Source: Candidatus Omnitrophota bacterium
GTDB lineage: Bacteria > Omnitrophota > Gorgyraeia > Aquiviventales > Aquiviventaceae
DNA: 64,000 nt
Assembly: GCA_016180575.1 (NCBI GenBank)
Contig: JACPAY010000001.1
Coordinates: forward strand, 857 to 64,856
Direction of reading: 5' to 3'
Shown in pieces: positions 10,039 through 40,245 of the stretch (position 1 is the stretch's first letter; each line of letters starts with the position of its first letter). The notes beneath the pieces are model-generated. The model was not told where the DNA came from and searched no databases. It saw only the letters and a program-made list of their open reading frames with translations. A program made the translations under genes and the position numbers.

Positions 10039-10487
10039 GGCCGCAAGGCCAGCGCCGTCACCACCCCCACCCCCACGCCCGCGAGCACCTCGACCGGCGT
10101 GTGCCCCAGCAGCTCTTTCAGGCGCTGCTCCTGCTGGATCCGGCGCTTGAAATAGATGTCTTCCAGCATCCGGTTCAGGATCCGGGCCTGCAGCCCGCTC
10201 CAGCGGCGGACCCCTTGGGCGTCGAAGAGGGTGATGACGGTGAAGGCGATGGCGGTGGCGAAGAGGGGGGAATCAAAGCCGGCCCGGAGGCCGACGGCCA
10301 GGCTGAGGGCGGTCACCCCGGCGGCGTGGGTGCTGGGCATGCCGCCGGTGCCGATGAGCCAGCGGAAGTCAAAGCGGCGAAGGCGGATGGTCCCCAGGAG
10401 GATCTTGATGCCCTGGGCGAGGAGACAGGCCAACAACCAGGACAGCAACACCTGGTTCGCCCACCAGGCGTTGGGTGTGGAACTCAT
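10035..10487 (-). CDS. divergent PAP2 family membrane protein (DUF212-like)
   Basis: 150 aa. GGMPSTHAAGVTAL...FDAQGVRR...LKELLGHTPVEV matches the acid phosphatase/vanadium-haloperoxidase-related DUF212 pattern. Confidence 0.75.
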   Translation of the reverse strand: MSSTPNAWWANQVLLSWLLACLLAQGIKILLGTIRLRRFDFRWLIGTGGMPSTHAAGVTALSLAVGLRAGFDSPLFATAIAFTVITLFDAQGVRRWSGLQARILNRMLEDIYFKRRIQQEQRLKELLGHTPVEVLAGVGVGVVTALALRP

Positions 10488-10498
10488 GCGCGACTGGA

Positions 10499-11107
10499 CT
10501 ACTGCGACTGCGGCTCCAGGACGTGCACCAGCAGTCTCGGGCTGGCGCCCAGGGTGGATTTGCCCTGCTTGACGACGTAGCCGCGATTGCCGGATGCGAG
10601 CTGGGCCTCATCGCGCTCCCGCTGGCGCTGGGCCCGCGCCCGCCAGTTGGCCCATCGCTCCGCCCACATCTTCTGCTTGACGTCACGAATGGCCAGCCGG
10701 AGCTCCTTCAGAGAGGACAGCTTGGCCTCAAGCGCCTGCTTTTCGCTCGCGGCCTGCTCCAGCTGCGCGGTCAGCGAGGTGTTCTCCTGCCGCAGCTTCG
10801 CATGTTCCCGCTGCAGGGAGGCGATCTGGTCGGTCGTCTCCCGAAGCCGCTCCTGGACGGCCACCAGCTCCACCTGGAGGCTCTGGACGTTGCCCGCCTG
10901 AGTCTCTGTCGTCTGCCGGGCGGTCCCAAGCTCCGAGCTGAGCTGCTCGCGCTCCGCGGTGAGCTGCTGGATGAGCTGCTGCGCCTCTTCGTACGTCTTG
11001 GCGACCTGCAGGCGCTGGCGCTCTGCCGCCGTGGTCCGCCACAGGCTGGCAGCCAACAGGATCCCCAGCACCACTAAGACTACCCGTCCTCTCTGCTGTG
11101 AGGGCAT
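10499..11107 (-). CDS. membrane-anchored coiled-coil protein, unknown function
   Basis: 202 aa. One N-terminal TM helix is followed by a long Gln/Glu/Leu-rich heptad-like region. Confidence 0.55.
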   Translation of the reverse strand: MPSQQRGRVVLVVLGILLAASLWRTTAAERQRLQVAKTYEEAQQLIQQLTAEREQLSSELGTARQTTETQAGNVQSLQVELVAVQERLRETTDQIASLQREHAKLRQENTSLTAQLEQAASEKQALEAKLSSLKELRLAIRDVKQKMWAERWANWRARAQRQRERDEAQLASGNRGYVVKQGKSTLGASPRLLVHVLEPQSQ

Positions 11108-18041: not shown

Positions 18042-19312
18042 CCGGGCACCTCGTGGACGATCGGCAGCACGATGGTGACCGTCGTCCCGCGCCCCTCGTG
18101 GCTCGCGAGGCTGATCCCGCCGCGGTGCTTCTCGACGATGGACCGCGAGATCGCCAACCCGAGGCCCGTCCCCTGGCCCGCCGGCTTCGTCGTGAAGAAC
18201 GGCTCGAACGCCTTCTGGACCTGGTCCGCCGGGATGCCGACGCCGGTGTCGGCGACGTCGCAGCGCACCGCAGCCTCCCCCGGCCGCCACGTCATCAGGG
18301 CCCGCCGAGCCAGCTCCACGGGGAGGCTCTCCGGCGCGGCGGCGGCGGTCCGGAGGGTCAGCTCGCCGCCCTTCGGCATCGCCTGGAGGGCGTTCAGGAT
18401 CACGTTGATGAAGACCTGCTTCATCTGGTTCTCGTCGATGACCACCGGCGGCAGCCCGTCAGCGAACGCCTGCCGCACCGCGATGTTCTGGAGCGCCAGC
18501 TGCTTCTCGACCAGCCCCAGCGAGTCCCGGATGACCTGCGCGATGTCGCAGGGCTTCGGCTCAAGCGGCCGCTGCCGGGAGAAGTTCAGCAGGTCGCGCA
18601 CGATGCGGTCCGACCGCATCACGGCCTCCTTGATCATCCGCAGGACCTCGAACCCCTCGGCGTCCTCCGGGCCGACCCGCCCCTCCAGGTAGTCGACCCC
18701 CTGCAGGATGATGCCCAGGGGGTTCTTGACCTCGTGCGCGACCCCGCTGGCGAGCTGGCCGATCGCCGCCATCTTCTCGGCGTGCACGAGCATCGCCTGC
18801 GTGTTCTTGAGCTCCTTGTAGGCCGTGTCGAGCTCGGCCGCGCGCTTGCGCGCCGCCACGGCCGAGTCGGCCGCCTCGGCGGCGAGCCGCTGCTCTTTCT
18901 CCTCCGCCCGCCGGCGCTCGGTGATGTCGCGGATGGCGACCACCGTGCTCAGCTCCTGCCGGCTGAACTGGACGCGGGCGGCGAACACCTCCAGCACCAC
19001 TGGCTGGCCGCCCCCCCGATATTCATAGCTTCCGATGGCGTTCGGCCGGCCGTTCAGGGCCAGGTGGATCGGATGGGCATGCGGGGGGAGGGGTTTGCCG
19101 CCGTCTTCAAGCGGCAGCAGGTCGACGAGCCGGGCGCCCAGCACTGCGGCGTCCAGCCGGTCCACGAGGCGGCGGAACGGCGCGTTGTACCACTGGACCC
19201 GCCCGTCTCCGTCGAGCCAGACCAGGGCGTCGACGATGGCGCTCAGCGCGACTTCCAGCTTGCCCAGCTTGGTGCGAAGATCGTCCACCCCGGTGAGGGC
19301 CGCTCCCGCCAT
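18038..19312 (-). CDS. PAS-domain sensor histidine kinase
   Basis: The start was set at the ATG at 19312, which follows an AGGAGG SD. It has a PAS-like N-domain, the H-box GVAHEVKNPL, the N-box NVILNALQA, and the G-boxes DTGVGI / GTGLGLAIS. Confidence 0.85.
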   Translation of the reverse strand: MAGAALTGVDDLRTKLGKLEVALSAIVDALVWLDGDGRVQWYNAPFRRLVDRLDAAVLGARLVDLLPLEDGGKPLPPHAHPIHLALNGRPNAIGSYEYRGGGQPVVLEVFAARVQFSRQELSTVVAIRDITERRRAEEKEQRLAAEAADSAVAARKRAAELDTAYKELKNTQAMLVHAEKMAAIGQLASGVAHEVKNPLGIILQGVDYLEGRVGPEDAEGFEVLRMIKEAVMRSDRIVRDLLNFSRQRPLEPKPCDIAQVIRDSLGLVEKQLALQNIAVRQAFADGLPPVVIDENQMKQVFINVILNALQAMPKGGELTLRTAAAAPESLPVELARRALMTWRPGEAAVRCDVADTGVGIPADQVQKAFEPFFTTKPAGQGTGLGLAISRSIVEKHRGGISLASHEGRGTTVTIVLPIVHEVPG

Positions 19313-19368: not shown

Positions 19369-19395
19369 ATCGACACCCTTCGGCAGTCCGCCCTT

Positions 19396-19436
19396 CCGGT
19401 GCCTGGCACTTCGCTTCGCGAAGAGCCAGGCACCGG
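19396..19436. repeat. 19-bp-stem hairpin
   Basis: CCGGTGCCTGGCACTTCGC-ttc-GCGAAGAGCCAGGCACCGG (1 mismatch). It lies between divergently transcribed genes, so it is not a conventional terminator position. Confidence 0.6.
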
Positions 19437-19538
19437 ACGCGTGACTTTGCGTCCCCCGGCTTACGCCGGGTCTGCCCGTTCGAGGGTGACTGCGACTTCT
19501 GCTACCTTAATCTTAAGCATAGCATATAATGGAAGAAA

Positions 19539-26703: not shown

Positions 26704-26884
26704 GGTGCTGTCTCAATTTGGCGGGTCCTGCCGCGCCGCCACCCCGTCGGCTGTCCTCGGCCTTCGCCTGCGGGCAGGCGACGGGGTCCCCGGCTCTGCG
26801 TCCCGTCGGCTGTCCTCGGCCTTCGCCTGCGGGCAGGCGACGGGGTCCCCGGCTCTGCGTCACCCGCCAAATTGAGACACGACC
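26704..26884. mobile_element. MITE-like structured repeat R1
   Basis: The 23-bp TIRs are GGTGCTGTCTCAATTTGGCGGGT / ACCCGCCAAATTGAGACACGACC. A perfect 8-bp direct repeat GGTCAGAG flanks the element at 26696-26703 and 26885-26892. An internal 59-bp tandem duplication spans 26744-26802 and 26803-26861. There is no coding capacity. Confidence 0.6.
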
Positions 26885-26886
26885 GG

Positions 26887-27471
26887 TCAGAGCTTGATGA
26901 GGAGCAGCTTGAGCTTGAGCAGCCGCACGTGCTCCCGCATGGCGGCCAGCTCCTGGTCGAGGCGGGCGGCGTCGCGGGCCATCTCATCCAGCTGGGCCTG
27001 CTGGCGGGAGCGCTCCTGCGGGGTCAGGACGACGTCCTGCTGGCCGAGCGATTTGCCAAGCTGCGCGATTGAGCGGCCGAGGCTCGCCCGCTGGGCGCGC
27101 TTGGCGCGCAGCTCCTCGGCGGCCAGCGAGAGGCTGAGCGCCAGCCTCTCGCGCTCCGGCTGGAGCCGGTTCTTCGCCTCGAGCGTCTTGCTGCGGACGG
27201 AGGCTGCGGCGGCCGCCAGGTCCTTGCGCAGGAGGGCGATGGTGTCCTCGACCGTCTTGCGCTTGAGGGCCAGCTCCTGCCGGTAGGTCTCCATGCGGTT
27301 GGCGAGCTCCCGGTGCTTGTCGAGCACCGACGCGAAGGCGGGATCGGCGGCAACGACCTCGCGGGCCAGCTGGTCGCGGTCGGCCGGGGCGCAGCCGCCC
27401 GGGCCGGCGGCGAGGAGCGCCAGCAGGATGCGGCCGGCGACCCGCGCCGCCCTCACGCGCCCATCAGCCAT
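26887..27471 (-). CDS. coiled-coil lipoprotein, unknown function
   Basis: 194 aa. The signal peptide carries AAGPGGC, followed by a long Ala/Leu/Arg/Glu coiled-coil region. It starts 4 nt after the kamA stop. Confidence 0.55.
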   Translation of the reverse strand: MADGRVRAARVAGRILLALLAAGPGGCAPADRDQLAREVVAADPAFASVLDKHRELANRMETYRQELALKRKTVEDTIALLRKDLAAAAASVRSKTLEAKNRLQPERERLALSLSLAAEELRAKRAQRASLGRSIAQLGKSLGQQDVVLTPQERSRQQAQLDEMARDAARLDQELAAMREHVRLLKLKLLLIKL

Positions 27472-27474
27472 GCC

Positions 27475-28650
27475 CTACCGGATCAGCACGTACGAGGGCT
27501 CGACGCTCGCCGCGCGCGAGCCTGCGCCGTTTGGCTGCTCTTCCCGGTACGTGAAGAGCTTGCCGGCGAAGTTGCGCAGCGTCCACACGCCGTCCTTGCA
27601 GGCGACGACGTAGTTCGGCATCAGCGGGATCTTCCCGCCGCCGCCCGGGCCGTCGACGACGAAGGTCGGGACCGCGTAGCCGCTCGTGTGCCCCCGCAGC
27701 TTCTCGATGATCGAAAGGCCGACCGCCACCGGCGTGCGGAAGTGCGCGGTGCCCTTGACCGGGTCGCACTGGTAGATGTAGTACGGCCGCACGCGGATCT
27801 TCAGCAGCTCATGGAACAGCTTCTTCATGATGGCGGGCCGGTCGTTGACGCCCTTCATGAGCACCGTCTGCGAGCCGAGCGGCACGCCGCTGTCCGCCAG
27901 CATCCCGCACGCCCGCTGGACGGGCGGGGTGACCTCCTTGGGATGGTTGAAGTGCAGGCTCATCCACACCGGCTTGTGCTTCCTGAGGACCGCGCAGAGC
28001 GACTCGGTCACGCGGTAGGGCAGCGTCACCGGGTTGCGCGTTCCGATCCGCACGAACTCGACGTGGGGGATGCTTTTCAGCTTCGTGAGGACCTCGTCCA
28101 GCCGCTCGTCGGACAGCGTGAGCGGGTCCCCGCCCGAGATGAGGACATCCCGGATCTTCCGGTGCGCGCGGATGTAGTCGATCGCCTGATCGATGTTCGC
28201 CGAGCGGCTGTAGCCGGCCGTCGTCCCCACGACGCGGCTGCGCGTGCAGAACCGGCAGTACATCGAGCACACCTCGACCACCAGCAGCAGGACCCGGTCC
28301 GGGTAGCGGTGGACGAGCCCGGGCACGGGCATGTGGCTGTCCTCGCCCAGCGGGTCGATCATGTCGTTGGGGCTGAGCCTGTACTCCTCCTCCACCGGAA
28401 CCGCCTGGCGCCGGATCGGGCACGTCGGGTCCTCCGGGTCCATCAGGGCCGCCCAGTACGGCGGGATGCCCATGATGAAGCGGCCGGACTTCCGCGTCAC
28501 CGCGCGCTCCTCCGAGGGGGTCAGCCGGATGACCTCCCGCAGCTGCTCCACCGTTTGGAGCCGGTTGGTCATCTGCCACCGGTAGGTCTCCCACTGCTCC
28601 AGCGGCACATCCTTCCAGATCGGGATCCGTCGAAACGCTTCCCAGCTCAC
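27475..28650 (-). CDS. kamA: lysine 2,3-aminomutase (radical SAM, KamA family)
   Basis: The track ORF was trimmed to the GTG at 28650, which follows an AAGGAGGAG SD. The radical SAM motif is CSMYCRFCTR. ...ISGGDPL...QTVLMKGVND...YIYQCDPVKGTAHFR is collinear with KamA. Confidence 0.9.
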   Translation of the reverse strand: MSWEAFRRIPIWKDVPLEQWETYRWQMTNRLQTVEQLREVIRLTPSEERAVTRKSGRFIMGIPPYWAALMDPEDPTCPIRRQAVPVEEEYRLSPNDMIDPLGEDSHMPVPGLVHRYPDRVLLLVVEVCSMYCRFCTRSRVVGTTAGYSRSANIDQAIDYIRAHRKIRDVLISGGDPLTLSDERLDEVLTKLKSIPHVEFVRIGTRNPVTLPYRVTESLCAVLRKHKPVWMSLHFNHPKEVTPPVQRACGMLADSGVPLGSQTVLMKGVNDRPAIMKKLFHELLKIRVRPYYIYQCDPVKGTAHFRTPVAVGLSIIEKLRGHTSGYAVPTFVVDGPGGGGKIPLMPNYVVACKDGVWTLRNFAGKLFTYREEQPNGAGSRAASVEPSYVLIR

Positions 28651-28678
28651 CGCGCTCCTCCTTCTTGCGTCCCGTTCC

Positions 28679-29776
28679 TCACGGAGCCGCCTGGCTCGCC
28701 GCGAGCGCCCTTGCAGGGAGGGGCTCCGGAGGAGGGACCGTGGCGCGCCCTGCTCGGCGCGCGTGCTGCGCATAGCGGCCCATGGCCAATGCCACGATCC
28801 GCTGGATGAGGGCTTCATGCGAGATGCCGGCTGCCGCCGTCATGACGGGGAAGTTGCTGTCCCACGGGCTGAGGCCCGGCAGCGGGTTGACCTCCAGCAC
28901 GAACGGGGTCCCGTCGGCGCGGAGGCGGATGTCGGTGCGCGAGAGGTCCACGCACCCCAGCGCCCGGTGCGCGCGCCGCGCGACGTCGCGGACCGCCGCC
29001 GCGGTCGGCTCGGGCAGGCGCGCCGGGCAGTGCAGCGTCGGGACCAGGCCCATCGCCGCGTTGCCCTGGAACTCCTTCATCCGCCAGGAATAGAAAAACT
29101 CCGCCGAGGCCTGGCAGGGGGAGAAGTCGATCTCCAGGATCGGCAGCATCTCCTCGCCGATGACGCCGGCGGTCAGCTCGACGCCGTCGATGAATTCCTC
29201 CACGAGCGCCTCCTGGTGGTAGCGGGCGTTCACCGCCTCCACCTGCCGGCGCAGCGCCGGTTCGTCCCCCACGACGCTCTCCCGCCAGATCCCTTTGCTG
29301 GACCCCTCGCGGTTGGGCTTCACGATGAGCGGGAACTCAAGCTGCCGGTTGAGCGGGGTGTCGGCGTTCGGGAAGAGCTGCCACCGGGGCGTCGGGATGC
29401 CTTCGGAGCTGAGGATCTGCTTGGTCTTGGCCTTGTCGAGCGCCAGGGCCAGGGTGATGCTGCCCGAGCCCGTGAACGGCACGCCGAGCGATTCGAGGAT
29501 CGCGGGCACCTGCGACTCCCGGTGCTCGCCGTGGATCCCCTCCGCGATGTTGAACGCCAGGTCCACGCGGTGGGCGAGGAACCAGTGGGGCAGCTCGTCG
29601 GTGGCTTCGACGAGATGGACCGCGTGGCCGGCCGCGCGCAGCGCCGTCACGATCGTCTCAATCGTCTTGGGGGTGTCGAACTCCGATTCGCGGTCGCAGG
29701 GGGCGGCGTCCCGTCCCGTCACGGCCGCGCCGCGCGGGTCGAGGGCCTGGCGCTTGAGGTTGTAGGTCAGCGCGAT
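28679..29776 (-). CDS. ATP-grasp ligase, D-alanine--D-alanine ligase family (paralog 2); start codon unresolved
   Basis: The Ddl-like pattern is LAFNIAEGIHGEHRESQVPAILE...DKAKTKQIL...PLIVKPNREGSSKGI...LEVNPLPGL. The conserved N-terminal strand IALTYNLKRQ lies upstream of the first canonical start (GTG 29722). The frame is open back to the stop at 29807-29809, with only ATC/CTG candidates. Confidence 0.75.
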   Translation of the reverse strand: MALTYNLKRQALDPRGAAVTGRDAAPCDRESEFDTPKTIETIVTALRAAGHAVHLVEATDELPHWFLAHRVDLAFNIAEGIHGEHRESQVPAILESLGVPFTGSGSITLALALDKAKTKQILSSEGIPTPRWQLFPNADTPLNRQLEFPLIVKPNREGSSKGIWRESVVGDEPALRRQVEAVNARYHQEALVEEFIDGVELTAGVIGEEMLPILEIDFSPCQASAEFFYSWRMKEFQGNAAMGLVPTLHCPARLPEPTAAAVRDVARRAHRALGCVDLSRTDIRLRADGTPFVLEVNPLPGLSPWDSNFPVMTAAAGISHEALIQRIVALAMGRYAQHARRAGRATVPPPEPLPARALAASQAAP

Positions 29777-30801
29777 TGTGTAGGGGTCGATAGGGAGCTC
29801 GCGTCGTCACGGGCCTTCAGGCCCGTCCGCACCAGCGCCGCCTCCAGGATGCGCTGGATGATCCGGTAGTGCGTCATGCCTTTGGTCTTCGCGATGTAGC
29901 TGAAGACGTCCTCGGTGGACAGCGACGGCAGCGGGTTGATCTCAAGGACGTACGGCTTGCCCTTGCGGTCCACCCGGAAGTCAACCCGGCCGAAGTCGCG
30001 GCAGTCCACCGCGCGATAGGTGTGCAGGGCCAGCTCCTGCATCTGCCGGCTCAACCCCTCGGGGATGGGCGCCGGGCAGAGGTAGTCGGAGCCGGTGCGC
30101 AGGTACGCGAACGTGAAGAACTTCCGGCCCAGGTCCGTGACGCCGTCGAGCACGATCTGGCACGCCGGGTAGACGTCCGGCGCGTCGTTGCCGATGACGG
30201 CCACCGTGAATTCCTGCCCCTCGATGAACTCCTCGACGAACACCGAGGCGCCCCGGTAGGTCTCCAGGAGCCAGTGCGCCTGGCGGCGCAGCTCCTGGGG
30301 GGTGTTGACGAGCGACTTGTCGCTCAGGCCCTTGCTTGAGCCCTCGCAGCGGAGCTTGACGATGAGGGGATAGGCGAGGTCGACCTGCCAGAGCTTGTCG
30401 GGGTCGGCGACTTCGGCGTAGCGCGGGGTCGGGATGCCCTCGGCAATGAGGACCTTCTTCGTCAGCACCTTGTCGAGGGTCAGGCCCAGGGTGAGCCCGT
30501 CGGCGCCCACGAAGGGCACGCGCAGCATCTCGAGGAGGATCGGCACCTGCGACTCGCGGTTGCGCCCCTCGTAGCCCTCCGCGATGTTGAAGACGATGTC
30601 GACGTCGAGCTTGCCCCTCCGCTCGAGGAGCTGGCGGGCGTTGCCGATCCGGACGACCTCATGCCCCGCCTCCCGCAGCGCCTTCTCGATGTGGGCGACC
30701 GTCTCCTCATGGTCGAACTCAGCGATGAGGTCCGGCGGGTCCTCCGGCTTGAGGACGTACTCGCCCTTCACGTTGTAGGTGAGCCCCACGCGGAACGCCA
30801 T
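29767..30801 (-). CDS. ATP-grasp ligase, D-alanine--D-alanine ligase family (paralog 1)
   Basis: The start was set at the ATG at 30801 (MAFRVGLTYNVKGEY...). VFNIAEGYEGRNRESQVPILLE...DKVLTKKVL...PLIVKLRCEGSSKGL...LEINPLPSL. Confidence 0.8.
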   Translation of the reverse strand: MAFRVGLTYNVKGEYVLKPEDPPDLIAEFDHEETVAHIEKALREAGHEVVRIGNARQLLERRGKLDVDIVFNIAEGYEGRNRESQVPILLEMLRVPFVGADGLTLGLTLDKVLTKKVLIAEGIPTPRYAEVADPDKLWQVDLAYPLIVKLRCEGSSKGLSDKSLVNTPQELRRQAHWLLETYRGASVFVEEFIEGQEFTVAVIGNDAPDVYPACQIVLDGVTDLGRKFFTFAYLRTGSDYLCPAPIPEGLSRQMQELALHTYRAVDCRDFGRVDFRVDRKGKPYVLEINPLPSLSTEDVFSYIAKTKGMTHYRIIQRILEAALVRTGLKARDDASSLSTPTQSR

Positions 30802-31076
30802 CAGCGTCCCCCGCCGGAAAAAAGAACAAGGGACCCGCACGTGTCGAGTCCCTGGACCGACCTGCTAAGTTGTGTCACGGGTGACGCGCCAGTCCTCAAC
30901 GTCCCTGCCGCGGTCCGCCGCAGACCGCGCAGGTGGTTGAAGACTGAAACCACATCACAAGTGTGTGCATTGTCACTATATTTCGTACCACACCGCGCAT
31001 GGGGTGTCAAGAACATGTGATGAAAAATGTTCGCGCGGCATGAAAAACGTCCGCGGCTGTGCTACCATCAATCGCC

Positions 31077-33220: not shown

Positions 33221-33461
33221 GCCGGGCTCCTTTCTTTTCGGTGGAGAGCGCGAGGTGAATGCGGTTGACCGTGCCGATGACCGAGATCAACGGCAGCTTC
33301 TTCTGCTGTTTGCGCCGCAGCTGCTTCAGGTGCGGGTTGGCCTCATGGCGCACCCAGCTCACCGGACGCTCCATGACCTCTTCCAGCCCGTCCTTGCCCC
33401 AGTGTGCCATGACGAACTTCCGGCACTTCTTCGAGAGCTCAGGCGTCGCGAACCATCCCAT
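33213..33461 (-). CDS. small hypothetical protein
   Basis: 82 aa with GC-rich third positions. A strong SD (AAGGAAGGAGGG) lies 4 nt upstream of the ATG. It overlaps the dcd start by 8 nt. Confidence 0.45.
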
Positions 33462-33496
33462 CTGGCCCTCCTTCCTTGGTCAGCTTCCTACGGTGG

Positions 33497-34192
33497 CTAG
33501 ACCTTCTGCCGGAGCAGGTCTTCCACGATGCTACTGCAGGTGGGCTGCCGCATTTCGAAGTAGTCGAACATTCCAAACAATTCACTCGTGACCTGATACG
33601 TCAGGTCACTTATAGCCGGTGCGATGGTCGCCACGGCCACTACCAGTAACTTGTCCACTTGGTCGACGTGGCATTTCCACCCACCGTGCATCAATCTATT
33701 CCGGTCGGCAACTCCTAACTCCCGCCCTTTCAGGGCATCATGCGAAAATCGAATCGAAACCTCATCAGCAGAGTCCAGACCCAAGTTATTCACGAGCCGT
33801 GAGCAGTAGAGGAATGCTTCCGCAACTCGCCGAATCCTCGTGTCAACATGCAGTTGAGTCCGAGCGGGCCCCTCCCAGACAGTATCCTCTTCATAAGATC
33901 TCATAAAGAACAACCGACCATCACGGAAAAGCTTCCAGTAGTCAACGGTGTCTCGGAGGGAGGTGGCCTGATCCCGCAGGTCAATCAGTGCCTCGATGCC
34001 ATCCTCAACGGGTTTCGGCGAATACTCTGGGCGCGTCATGGTAACGCCAATGGGCCATCCAGTAACTCGGCATTCTGCTGCCTCGGCTATCCTCAGAAGC
34101 TCTCGGTGACCAATAAGACCAAGCTTTCGATTCGGTTTGAACGTAAACTCAAAGGTTCCAAATTCGGCAGGTTTGGGTGCCTGACTAGACAT
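33497..34192 (-). CDS. hypothetical protein, partner of the AlbA_2-like protein (low-GC island)
   Basis: The track ORF was trimmed to the ATG at 34192 (MSSQAPKPAEFGTFEF...), which follows a GGAGG SD. The start overlaps the upstream stop by 8 nt (ATGTCTAG). It is 231 aa with no recognised domain. Confidence 0.55.
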   Translation of the reverse strand: MSSQAPKPAEFGTFEFTFKPNRKLGLIGHRELLRIAEAAECRVTGWPIGVTMTRPEYSPKPVEDGIEALIDLRDQATSLRDTVDYWKLFRDGRLFFMRSYEEDTVWEGPARTQLHVDTRIRRVAEAFLYCSRLVNNLGLDSADEVSIRFSHDALKGRELGVADRNRLMHGGWKCHVDQVDKLLVVAVATIAPAISDLTYQVTSELFGMFDYFEMRQPTCSSIVEDLLRQKV

Positions 34193-34862
34193 TCCGACCT
34201 CCGCTGCTTTGGAGTCGCTTGAGTACTGACATACGTACCTCTTCAATCCACTGGTCCGGAGTCGCATCGGCGCCACGCAGATCGAGCTTCACGTAGGGCT
34301 CTAGTGCAACCTTGAGAGCTTTAATAAACTCGCCCCGCTTGGCCACAATGCAACTCTCGATGAGGGCCCTCCAAGCTACTGGCCCTGCAACAATTGTGGT
34401 CTTTGCTTCCCTATCGCGAACGTAGACCGCACCTTGCCGCAAGATTTCCTCACGATCGCTGAGATAGATGGTCTTCCCACAGAAGACCGGCTGCTCTGAA
34501 AAAGGCCTTATGCTAATGATCGGATATCTTCGTCCCTCGTGCTCGATCTTGTAAATCGTCATGTCGATTGAGTCCTGACCAGCGAGGAACGAATTAACAT
34601 GTTGCGCAACTCGTGTTACATCATAGGATTTGACCACCGCTTCCGACAGGTCGGGATCGGGCCGTGGGTGTCCATCATCGCCCTCGCGAAACCCAAGAAC
34701 AATGTATCCACCACCGCTATTCGTGAAGCCCTGGCAATGTTTTGCGAGCTTAAGGGCAAAGTCTGACTTCTCGTCGAATGCGACCCCAGCCTTATAATCA
34801 ACGCGTGCCGACTCTCCAGGGTGCTTGAGGAAGGATTGTAAAAGTTCTGGCGCCTCGTTCAT
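34185..34862 (-). CDS. AlbA_2 / Schlafen-like (divergent AAA_4) domain protein
   Basis: 225 aa. GESARVDYKAG....LKLAKHCQGFTNSGGGYIVLGFRE fits the AlbA_2 pattern (E..x(E/D)(F/Y)K ... (A/F)xNxxGGxhhhG). The C-terminal ~100 aa are unassigned. Confidence 0.6.
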   Translation of the reverse strand: MNEAPELLQSFLKHPGESARVDYKAGVAFDEKSDFALKLAKHCQGFTNSGGGYIVLGFREGDDGHPRPDPDLSEAVVKSYDVTRVAQHVNSFLAGQDSIDMTIYKIEHEGRRYPIISIRPFSEQPVFCGKTIYLSDREEILRQGAVYVRDREAKTTIVAGPVAWRALIESCIVAKRGEFIKALKVALEPYVKLDLRGADATPDQWIEEVRMSVLKRLQSSGGRNV

Positions 34863-34883
34863 TGTAGAGGTATCAAAATTCTC

Positions 34884-35186
34884 CTAAGGATGCGAGTGAT
34901 TGCTTTTTTTATAAGCGTACACGTAGGCGCTGGCTCGATCGCCTCCACCAGATCCACCATCAGTACCAAGCGTGCTGACAAGGTGGGCTTCGGCACGTCG
35001 CGCCTCTTCGCTTGAAAGAGCTTGTCTAAAAATCCAAGCATCACCCTGTCTTAAAACGCCGTGATCGTTGAAAAGTCGGTTGGTAGGCTCCTTGGCGATA
35101 CCCACATACCAAGTGCTGGGGGGACCCCCGCACTGATGCATATACTCCATAATTTCTGCAACGATTTGACTCGCCGGCCTAAACAT
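34884..35186 (-). CDS. small GIY-YIG-like protein (tentative)
   Basis: 100 aa. WYVGIAKEPTNRLFNDH...EEARRAEAHL...GGSGGGD...YVYAYKK resembles GIY-YIG/Uri-type small proteins. This is a weak call. Confidence 0.4.
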   Translation of the reverse strand: MFRPASQIVAEIMEYMHQCGGPPSTWYVGIAKEPTNRLFNDHGVLRQGDAWIFRQALSSEEARRAEAHLVSTLGTDGGSGGGDRASAYVYAYKKSNHSHP

Positions 35187-35306
35187 TTCAACCTCCCATC
35201 TTTCAACCGGTGGCAGCGCGACGGTTATCGTGGTGCTCTCTTACCGGTTGAGGCTACGCTCCACGCACGCGGCCTGGCTGTAATGTGGCCGCTATAGTTC
35301 GTTGAT

Positions 35307-35564
35307 TCACGCGAGCAAACCTGCTTGCCTTCGAACGTTGTTGTGCCAATTGAGCGGACGTAGATTGGTCAACGAATCGCTTCCGCCGAGGGACTGTGGA
35401 ACGATGTGGTCAATTTCCCAGCCGTAGAGGGAGTCCCTGTTGCCGTACTGTTTCCGCTCGATCAAAGTTCCGTACGCGTCCATGCGAACGTAATTAGGGT
35501 CGAAACCAAGCGCCAAGCGGCCCTTTGCCCAGACCAACTGCTCGAGGAGGAAGCTGAAGTCCAT
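35307..35564 (-). CDS. small HNH endonuclease-like protein
   Basis: 85 aa. GWEIDHIVPQSLGGSDSLTNLRPLNWHNN is an HNH core. Confidence 0.75.
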   Translation of the reverse strand: MDFSFLLEQLVWAKGRLALGFDPNYVRMDAYGTLIERKQYGNRDSLYGWEIDHIVPQSLGGSDSLTNLRPLNWHNNVRRQAGLLA

Positions 35565-35752
35565 CCCTCGTCACCTTTTTAATGCACTGGTAGCCAACGT
35601 CTCAGTATGAGGTGTCCGTGGTTCCAGTTGCAGCAACAAAGCTGGTAAGCGATCGCACTGAGTCTTGCAGCACCTTACGACCACTAGCCTAAAACTGACA
35701 CCCCCCTTCGCTGCGAATTAACTAAGCTCGAACGTTAGTCGGCCAGGCTACG

Positions 35753-40117: not shown

Positions 40118-40245
40118 GGTGCTGTCTCAATTTGGCGGGTGACGCAGAGCCGGGGACCCCGTCGCCTGCCCGCAGGCGAAGGCCGAGGACAGCCGACGGG
40201 GTGGCGGCGCGGCAGCGGCAGGACCCGCCAAATTGAGACACGACC
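40118..40245. mobile_element. MITE-like structured repeat R2 (core inverted relative to R1)
   Basis: It has the same TIRs as R1, in the same left/right configuration (GGTGC... left, ...CGACC right). The internal ~82 bp is the reverse complement of the R1 core. The flanking 8-mers AAAGCGGG / AAAATGGG match at 6 of 8 positions. Confidence 0.6.

Follow-up and report, generated by a model that had tools for sequence, protein, structure and literature searches.

The known fates of beta-lysine are lysine fermentation, the osmolyte N-epsilon-acetyl-beta-lysine, the modification of elongation factor P (EF-P) and some antibiotics. The osmolyte is the product of AblA/AblB, a pathway that occurs in methanogens and some bacteria, and the modification of EF-P involves EpmB/EpmA. 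A comparable logic is found in PylB/PylC, where a radical-SAM rearrangement of lysine is followed by the ligation of the product to an amine by an ATP-grasp enzyme of the Ddl superfamily; PylB does not belong to the KamA family. Among ATP-grasp-type ligases, the synthetases of glutathionylspermidine and of trypanothione transfer acyl groups to the amines of polyamines, the two additions being made by two enzymes, and Ngg, from the N-acetylglutaminylglutamine amide (NAGGN) osmolyte pathway, combines a GNAT and an ATP-grasp domain to make an N-acetylated dipeptide solute. Here we describe an operon in which a lysine 2,3-aminomutase (KamA) is encoded together with two Ddl-like ATP-grasp ligases (AG1 and AG2) and a coiled-coil lipoprotein. 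It was found in a 64,000-nucleotide stretch of DNA, hereafter the window, from a high-GC (about 70%) metagenome-assembled genome (MAG) of Candidatus Omnitrophota (assembly GCA_016180575.1, contig JACPAY010000001.1, positions 857 to 64,856). We consider it somewhat probable that KamA makes beta-lysine and that two sequential ATP-dependent ligations build from it a small cationic, polyamine-like or solute-like beta-lysine amide.

The components of this module belong to known superfamilies, but their combination fits none of Ddl, EpmAB and AblAB. AG1 and AG2 share with the Ddl/Van ligases (EC 6.3.2.4) the three-domain ATP-grasp fold and identical ATP, Mg and catalytic residues; they differ in being paired and linked to KamA, in changed residues at the substrate site and in the lack of a mur/dcw context. 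The resemblance to AblA/AblB lies in the aminomutase, which has its best score on the AblA model, and in a GNAT that stands beside KamA in most relatives. However, this GNAT is RimI-like, with no AblB-type model among its NCBIfam matches, the window has no GNAT, and two ATP-grasp ligases are added that AblAB does not need. In EpmB/EpmA a KamA-family enzyme also supplies beta-lysine, but the chemistry proposed here passes through an acyl-phosphate, as in other ATP-grasp enzymes, whereas EpmA, which resembles aminoacyl-tRNA synthetases, forms an acyl-adenylate. The pathway logic of a lysine mutase followed by a Ddl-type ligase is that of PylB/PylC, with the differences that the window system lacks PylD and has two ligases instead of one; when the ligase profile was compared with the PDB, PylC was absent from the best 60 of 103 matches. 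The operons with polyamine genes or a GNAT described below resemble, in pathway logic only, Ngg and the two polyamine-acylating synthetases named above. In line with the original prediction, which could place the combination in no characterised pathway, a full-text literature search found no paper, in the library searched, on an aminomutase combined with a pair of Ddl-like ligases.

The four genes lie on the minus strand between positions 30801 and 26887 of the window, in the order AG1 (29767-30801, 344 amino acids, aa), AG2 (28679-29791, 370 aa from a probable AUC start), KamA (27475-28650, 391 aa from a GTG) and the lipoprotein gene (26887-27471, 194 aa). They have the same orientation and are closely packed, as first described: AG1 and AG2 overlap by 25 nt with the AUC start, or are 44 nt apart if AG2 begins at a GTG at 29722 (28679-29722, 347 aa), and the gaps between AG2 and KamA and between KamA and the lipoprotein gene are 28 nt and 3 nt. 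They constitute a single operon, with KamA and the two ligases as its conserved core. The AG1 protein is 100% identical to MBI2103983.1 and has a counterpart with 92% identity in a sister MAG.

By its sequence, the aminomutase is a lysine-type KamA, as proposed from its CSMYCRFC motif. It matches the Pfam families LAM_C and Radical_SAM and aligns without gaps to the lysine 2,3-aminomutase of Clostridium subterminale (PDB 2A5H, E 3.6e-136). This alignment shows that it keeps the cluster cysteines C125, C129 and C132, R134, the residues D293 and D330 that hold the epsilon-amine of lysine, and K337, which is the lysine that binds pyridoxal phosphate (PLP), so that all Fe-S cluster, PLP and lysine-binding residues used by the Clostridium enzyme are retained. 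These residues are also retained in 77-78 of the 78 KamA sequences linked to the ligase module. Among family models, it scores 361 bits on TIGR00238 (KamA family, cut-off 199.2) and 500.3 bits on TIGR03820 (AblA/KamA equivalog), just under the cut-off of 525.4. The EpmB model gives 245 bits against a cut-off of 369.3, with no adjacent efp or epmA, and the models of glutamate and arginine aminomutases give lower scores, far under their own cut-offs. With these lower scores and with D293 and D330 both retained, we rejected an identity as glutamate or arginine 2,3-aminomutase. The structural Zn site is lost: C268 is replaced by R, the C-terminal Cys cluster is absent and the LAM_C match covers only positions 1-59 of 127. 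The same cysteine is missing in 76 of the 78 module-linked relatives and present in 2.

AG1 and AG2 are paralogues of the Ddl family, as predicted: both match Dala_Dala_lig_C (E 1.6e-33 and 1.4e-32, respectively), with no Pfam match to Dala_Dala_lig_N, and they share 39% identity with each other and 25-32% with DdlB of Escherichia coli. The nearest solved family is Ddl. The AlphaFold2 model of AG1 has a predicted local distance difference test (pLDDT) value of 89.5, and its top 50 Foldseek matches in the PDB are all Ddl or Van enzymes (template modelling score 0.69-0.85). Compared with the PDB, the family profile reaches 1e-48 for Ddl, 5e-19 for the L-amino-acid ligase BL00235 and no better than about 2e-6 for cyanophycin synthetase, by which the ligases are not of the cyanophycin type. 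Residues K97, K144, E180, E187, R255, D257, E270 and N272 (DdlB numbering, used throughout) are invariant in 98 sequences of the family. Both ligases keep the full ATP-grasp catalytic set and are predicted to be competent.

Sequence comparison sets AG1 and AG2 apart from ordinary Ddl by their scores, their substrate site and their genomic context. AG1 scores 152 and 172 bits and AG2 159 and 197 bits, against cut-offs of 245.65 for TIGR01205 and 243 for PRK01372, and both fall under every Ddl and Van cut-off of NCBIfam. For the substrate site, we tested the residues that bind D-Ala, i.e. the E15/S150/Y216 triad, H63 and S281/L282. Throughout the 98 sequences, E15 is replaced by D and H63 by E; Y216 gives way to R, E, S or W, S150 is kept in only part of the family, and S281/L282 are lost, most sequences having an acidic residue at 280-282, a trait noted for type A. 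Finally, no mur, dcw or fts gene was found beside any locus examined, which extends to the relatives the lack of a cell-wall context already remarked upon in the window. The original prediction thus stands in that these ligases are neither ordinary Ddl nor cyanophycin-type enzymes. In a neighbour-joining tree with E. coli DdlB as the sole Ddl, the family sits on a long branch from DdlB and splits into two clades, type A and type B. AG1 and AG2 are both of type A. AG1 is nearest to the ligases of loci L081/L083, L027 and L028 (the type A ligases of L081/L083, at 44-45% identity, being the closest outside its own clade), and AG2 to an Anaerolineae ligase that adjoins KamA (45% identity). Public annotation calls members of the family either "ATP-grasp domain-containing protein" or "D-alanine--D-alanine ligase".

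The association of KamA with these ligases is more than chance, as it is kept in the high-GC Omnitrophota loci (L001-L022) and recurs in independent lineages. Within L001-L022 the arrangement is found wherever the locus is long enough; the whole neighbourhood is syntenic there, and synteny within this clade alone says little on linkage. In Anaerolineae (L025, L087), KamA adjoins a ligase in the order GNAT, KamA, ligase A, Gmad2/Germane protein, ligase B. An unclassified MAG (L027) and a low-GC Omnitrophota locus (L028) have KamA followed by ligase A, and in L081/L083 and L089-L120 the order is ligase A, PAS kinase, sigma-54 regulator, further genes, KamA, ligase B. A metagenome scan seeded with the type B ligase only returned 80 loci, 19 of which we considered informative because they extend for at least 2.5 kb on both sides. 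All 19 encode two ligases, 17 encode KamA and 11 a small GNAT, in sequences with GC from 0.42 to 0.67. The survey of kamA with two Dala_Dala_lig_C genes, suggested at the outset as a check, hence reveals a conserved neighbourhood. The 2 informative loci without KamA carry an arginine decarboxylase with agmatinase and/or deoxyhypusine synthase (DHS) genes.

The widespread form of the module comprises a type A ligase, a type B ligase, a small GNAT and KamA. In the relatives, the GNAT has 158-175 aa and matches only RimI-like NCBIfam models, under their cut-offs. A homology search with the AG1 protein finds only close relatives from the same clade, and the distant ones were reached through a profile of distant ligases. 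The family is large: a search with AG1 of 1.84 billion cluster representatives gave 897 clusters (50% identity) at E<=1e-30, and relatives of the type B ligase in the metagenome collection exceed 590. Among the best 150 of the 897 clusters there are 35 ligase-ligase fusions (18 A+A, 16 A+B and 1 B+A). In one cluster representative, P0443 (695 aa), a type A ligase continues in frame into an aminomutase of the KamA family; its sequence may reflect either a true ligase-aminomutase fusion or a gene-calling artefact. The equivalent of D293 in its aminomutase is Q, so its substrate may differ.

All-against-all clustering of the neighbouring open reading frames (ORFs) of 36 loci added no conserved partner to the ligases, KamA and the GNAT. 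Genes for transporters or exporters, for hydrolases or for primer-related functions are not conserved around the module in these loci, most of which have no envelope gene either. The known partners of beta-lysine metabolism are missing, in agreement with the original prediction: there is no kamDE/kdd/kce, no ablB-type GNAT and no efp/epmA. The window itself has no efp, epmA, GNAT, type B ligase or polyamine genes, and tblastn with the E. coli EF-P and EpmA gave no match in it. Likewise, no efp or epmA stands beside the module in the relatives, a context in which the initial proposal would have failed; we found there only full-length class II synthetases, of the LysRS type and, according to the Pfam annotation of L083, of the AspRS type. 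We dropped a reading of the cluster as a defence system, since PADLOC gave no defence-system matches.

The variants with polyamine genes may bear on the substrates. In L128 (6757-11882), a DHS fragment, an arginase-family agmatinase and a pyruvoyl-dependent arginine decarboxylase are followed by ligase A, ligase B and a methyltransferase. In L150 (3482-10108), the genes of a DHS homologue and an arginine decarboxylase precede that of a third ATP-grasp protein, after which come those of ligases A and B, a GNAT, a methyltransferase and another GNAT; the DHS homologue is full-length and passes its NCBIfam cut-off, and agmatinase was not found in this locus. Both operons are tight and co-directional. 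In L135 and L144, too, tblastn located agmatinase and arginine decarboxylase next to the two ligases. Beta-lysine (3,6-diaminohexanoate) has the structure of putrescine with a carboxymethyl group. This structure, together with the swap of KamA for polyamine genes, suggests that the ligase pair handles di- or polyamine-like substrates.

The pathway that we propose would start with the conversion of L-lysine to beta-lysine by KamA. Each ligase would then form one amide bond through an acyl-phosphate intermediate, so that beta-lysine would end in a small amide of two or three components. The positions at which Ddl binds the amino group of D-Ala and the carboxylate of D-Ala2 are replaced in the ligases, mostly by acidic residues, and these substitutions would fit substrates with extra amino groups. 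More precisely, the shorter D at E15 and the E at H63 would suit an acyl donor with both a beta-amino and an epsilon-amino group, which favours beta-lysine as the activated acyl donor, its most likely role. The acidic residue at the D-Ala2 carboxylate site would suit an amine-rich acceptor, so lysine, a further molecule of beta-lysine, or a diamine or polyamine may serve as the acceptor. A cationic product, polyamine-like or similar to a compatible solute, would result and be kept in the cytoplasm. In most other lineages the small RimI-like GNAT would N-acetylate it, and in a minority of loci the arginine decarboxylase, with agmatinase and/or DHS, would supply a different amine. The original idea that beta-lysine is ligated gains support from the conserved linkage of the genes; the identity of the product goes beyond it.

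Several observations weigh against this pathway. We infer the substrates, the order of the ligations and the product. The window encodes two ligases of type A and neither a type B ligase nor a GNAT, and this operon and the common module may have different products. A canonical start codon is lacking in AG2, and the assignment of E15 to D rests on a MAFFT alignment of a divergent and uncertain N-terminal domain. The operons with polyamine genes lack KamA, so a neighbouring source of beta-lysine is not strictly required by the ligase pair, and the role of beta-lysine could be that of the amine acceptor instead of the acyl donor. Two versions of the cluster include a gene for a secreted or envelope protein, namely the lipoprotein in the window and a Gmad2/Germane protein in Anaerolineae, which could point to the envelope instead. 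Finally, a passage of PMC10407285, which cites another study, states that PLP biosynthesis is missing or incomplete across Omnitrophota; KamA needs PLP and, if this statement applies here, its function would require PLP salvage.

The lipoprotein has a signal peptide and a lipobox, L-[AS]-G-C-[AGS], whose Cys is invariant in 18 aligned orthologues, and no Pfam or NCBIfam match. Its AlphaFold2 model (pLDDT 92) is a helix of roughly 100 residues folded back as a hairpin, for which the fold search gave no significant PDB match, only generic coiled-coil ones. We found only 203 homologues; the 120 listed have 53-100% identity, and the organism names given for them are all Omnitrophica/Omnitrophota. 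The lipoprotein of the original prediction is present in the operon with its invariant lipobox cysteine, but it is restricted to one clade and does not belong to the conserved module; the predicted protein would be a lineage-specific passenger or accessory. It may be argued from such proteins that the ligases either form a dipeptide with beta-lysine or attach beta-lysine or a diamine to a precursor of the cell wall, and that the lipoprotein or the Gmad2/Germane protein acts on or binds the modified envelope. That Ddl is the closest solved family, that the lipoprotein is translationally coupled to KamA, that the Gmad2/Germane protein stands between the two ligases in Anaerolineae and that a faint Peptidase_M15 match occurs two genes upstream of one fused ligase all speak for this explanation. 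We nonetheless judge it improbable, in both its enzymatic part and the role given to these envelope proteins: no version of the module has mur, dcw or fts genes beside it, the lipoprotein is confined to one clade and most loci have no envelope gene, and the Ddl residues that bind the carboxylate of D-Ala2 are not kept. We know of no peptidoglycan that contains beta-lysine.

The expression of the operon is probably regulated at the level of its 5' leader. Upstream of AG1 lies a promoter-like element (30982-31010, minus strand) made of TTGACA (31010-31005), a spacer of 17 nt and TACGAA (30987-30982), with TGG preceding the latter. Both hexamers and their spacing are conserved in most of 22 aligned Omnitrophota loci; a strict sigma-70 consensus scan did not call the element. 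We infer that it would act as a promoter. The leader between it and AG1, roughly 170 nt, is conserved and contains a long, irregular structured hairpin of 99 nt (30863-30961, minus strand) with three helices, P1 (GUGAUG/CGUCAC), P2 and P3, that shows covariation. RNAalifold over the full leader predicts 35 pairs, 13 of them with compensatory changes. In the hairpin, 92.9% of cells are paired, compared with 27-46% when the partner is slid, and 11 pairs change on both sides, which none of 500 shuffles matched. A search of 30802-31058 against Rfam 15 gave no match at the gathering score or at E<=5, lysine riboswitch included, so we regard the leader as a structured element outside the classified families. 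With the covariance model R1, the only matches lie upstream of orthologues of AG1.

Two further features of the leader are relevant to its function. A small ORF of 24 codons (MHTLVMWFQSSTTCAVCGGPRQGR; 30896-30970, minus strand) opens inside the leader with an ATG that follows the -10 element at a distance of about 11 nt. The frame is uninterrupted and free of gaps in all 18 orthologues aligned, its ratio of non-synonymous to synonymous polymorphism (pN/pS) is 0.69 in frame versus 1.0-1.2 in the other frames, and its third positions have the highest entropy. This coding signal is weak and confounded by the overlapping RNA structure, and the ORF possibly encodes a leader peptide. Downstream, a terminator scan found a hairpin like that of intrinsic terminators, AGGGACUC...GGGUCCCU, followed by a U-run (30818-30853, minus strand), which ends about 17 nt before the start codon of AG1. 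It is conserved with covariation in 20 loci, has a folding energy of -14.9 kcal/mol and is a candidate attenuator. From these sequence features, the expression of the operon in the Omnitrophota clade is probably under transcription attenuation that involves the leader hairpin, the small ORF and the terminator, and the leader is a candidate for either a new riboswitch or a leader-peptide attenuator.

A different leader occurs in L081, at about 10290-10535, and at the equivalent positions of L089-L120. The leader ORF conserved there starts with ATG, GTG or ATT, includes a stretch of Lys codons (QRKKKKRC) and varies synonymously at third positions. Upstream of KamA it ends in a terminator, which the simple scan missed and folding confirmed. 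The peptide is unrelated in sequence to the 24-codon ORF. This leader looks like a candidate lysine-codon attenuator, which would fit lysine as the input of the pathway.

The small ORF could also be seen as a substrate. A ligase might attach beta-lysine to the 24-residue leader peptide, or to a translation factor, for instance EF-P, in replacement of EpmA. The ATP-grasp ligase PGM1 modifies a ribosomal peptide in the biosynthesis of pheganomycin, and the arrangement of a small ORF and a terminator before the enzymes is also known for genes of precursor peptides. Translation-related genes recur nearby (those of an RlmI-like methyltransferase, AspRS, LysRS, MnmE and a baeRF protein), DHS genes take the place of KamA in some operons, and beta-lysine is the modifier of EF-P in E. 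coli. Yet the small ORF overlaps a covarying hairpin and is under weak coding selection, as its pN/pS indicates; the leader RNA motif is confined to the AG1 clade, and the L081-type peptide is unrelated to it. Moreover, no efp is found near any module, two ligases and a GNAT exceed what the lysylation of EF-P needs, and we know of no Ddl-type ATP-grasp enzyme that modifies proteins. We give a peptide or protein target little probability.

A third explanation, to which we attach a low probability, is that the ligases build an oligomer or a polymer, either oligo- or poly-(beta-lysine) or a branched polyamide similar to cyanophycin, with one enzyme for the backbone and one for the side chains. 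Beta-lysine, with two amines and one carboxylate, would be a suitable monomer, the two paralogous ligases work together, are often fused and have acidic substrate pockets, and streptothricins carry epsilon-linked chains of beta-lysine. However, the similarity to cyanophycin synthetase is remote in the profile search (E about 2e-6 versus 1e-48 for Ddl), the conserved neighbours of the module include none for an exporter, a hydrolase or a primer-related function, and Ddl-type enzymes are typically dipeptide ligases with a single turnover. The last alternative, an ordinary cell-wall Ddl beside an unrelated KamA that serves catabolism, osmolyte synthesis or EF-P modification, draws on the fold, the catalytic residues and the many members annotated as "D-alanine--D-alanine ligase", but it is largely refuted and very improbable, given the scores under every Ddl/Van cut-off, the loss of E15, H63, Y216, S281 and L282, the long branch from DdlB, the two copies in 19 of 19 informative loci (often fused, with KamA in 17 and with the ligase-aminomutase fusion P0443) and the absence of kamDE/kdd/kce, ablB-type GNAT or efp/epmA partners.

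Returning to the operon that would make the beta-lysine amide, two of its gene starts deserve comment. KamA had been taken to begin at an upstream ATG, at 28818. We place its start at GTG 28650 instead, because the ORF from the ATG, of 447 aa, would overlap AG2 by 140 nt, its first 56 residues are unconserved, and the GTG has AAGGAGG in front. For AG2, the conserved first beta-strand, TIALTYNLK, is encoded in frame 5' of GTG 29722, and no ATG, GTG or TTG is usable upstream of it. The position equivalent to 29791 of the window is ATC in 18 of 19 orthologous loci and ATA in the remaining one (L004), with a purine-rich, Shine-Dalgarno-like stretch 6-10 nt upstream. The conserved codon, this stretch and the lack of a canonical start together suggest that AG2 is probably translated from a conserved non-canonical AUC at 29791, overlapping the 3' end of AG1 by 25 nt.

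The operon is flanked upstream by gpmA (divergent), ogg and dcd and downstream by pabB, pabC, purH and folC, none of which is a known partner of beta-lysine metabolism. Between the stop codon of the lipoprotein gene and the start of pabB lies a structured repeat element (26711-26877, minus strand), with two tandem units of 59 bp (26744-26861) flanked by inverted repeats of about 16 bp and a fold z-score of -4.6. A third, identical 59-bp copy is found 13 kb away, at 40141-40199 on the plus strand. The element may be the boundary of the operon and looks like a dispersed element of the repetitive extragenic palindrome or miniature inverted-repeat transposable element (REP/MITE) type. On the other side, between dcd and a gene for a class II ribonucleotide reductase, a stretch at about 33300-35700 has a GC of about 0.55, compared with about 0.70 elsewhere; it is probably a small island of acquired DNA, with genes for a Schlafen/AlbA_2 protein and an HNH endonuclease beside orphan ORFs. 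Elsewhere in the window, a c-di-GMP-I riboswitch (19379-19486, minus strand; 45.6 bits versus a gathering score of 35) lies directly upstream of a gene for a PAS/HisKA/HATPase histidine kinase (18059-19279).

Taken jointly, these results allow for a broader reading, which we put forward tentatively and regard as rather unlikely to hold in all its parts: the module, with or without the small GNAT, would be a widespread, unrecognised pathway of uncultivated anaerobes for new polycationic metabolites, amino-acyl amides based on beta-lysine or, in some lineages, on agmatine or putrescine that serve as polyamine analogues or solutes, with a new cis-regulatory leader in Omnitrophota and an AG2 that starts at AUC. 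The module would add another fate of beta-lysine, in lineages of very different GC, and it marks, among the proteins annotated as "D-alanine--D-alanine ligase", a large branch that bears the wrong name. Its conserved leader in Omnitrophota may be a new regulatory RNA. That genes for arginine decarboxylase, agmatinase and DHS can stand in for KamA suggests an unexpected link between the biology of beta-lysine and that of polyamines, and for Omnitrophota, Anaerolineae and other uncultivated anaerobes the module gives access to a part of their small-molecule metabolism.

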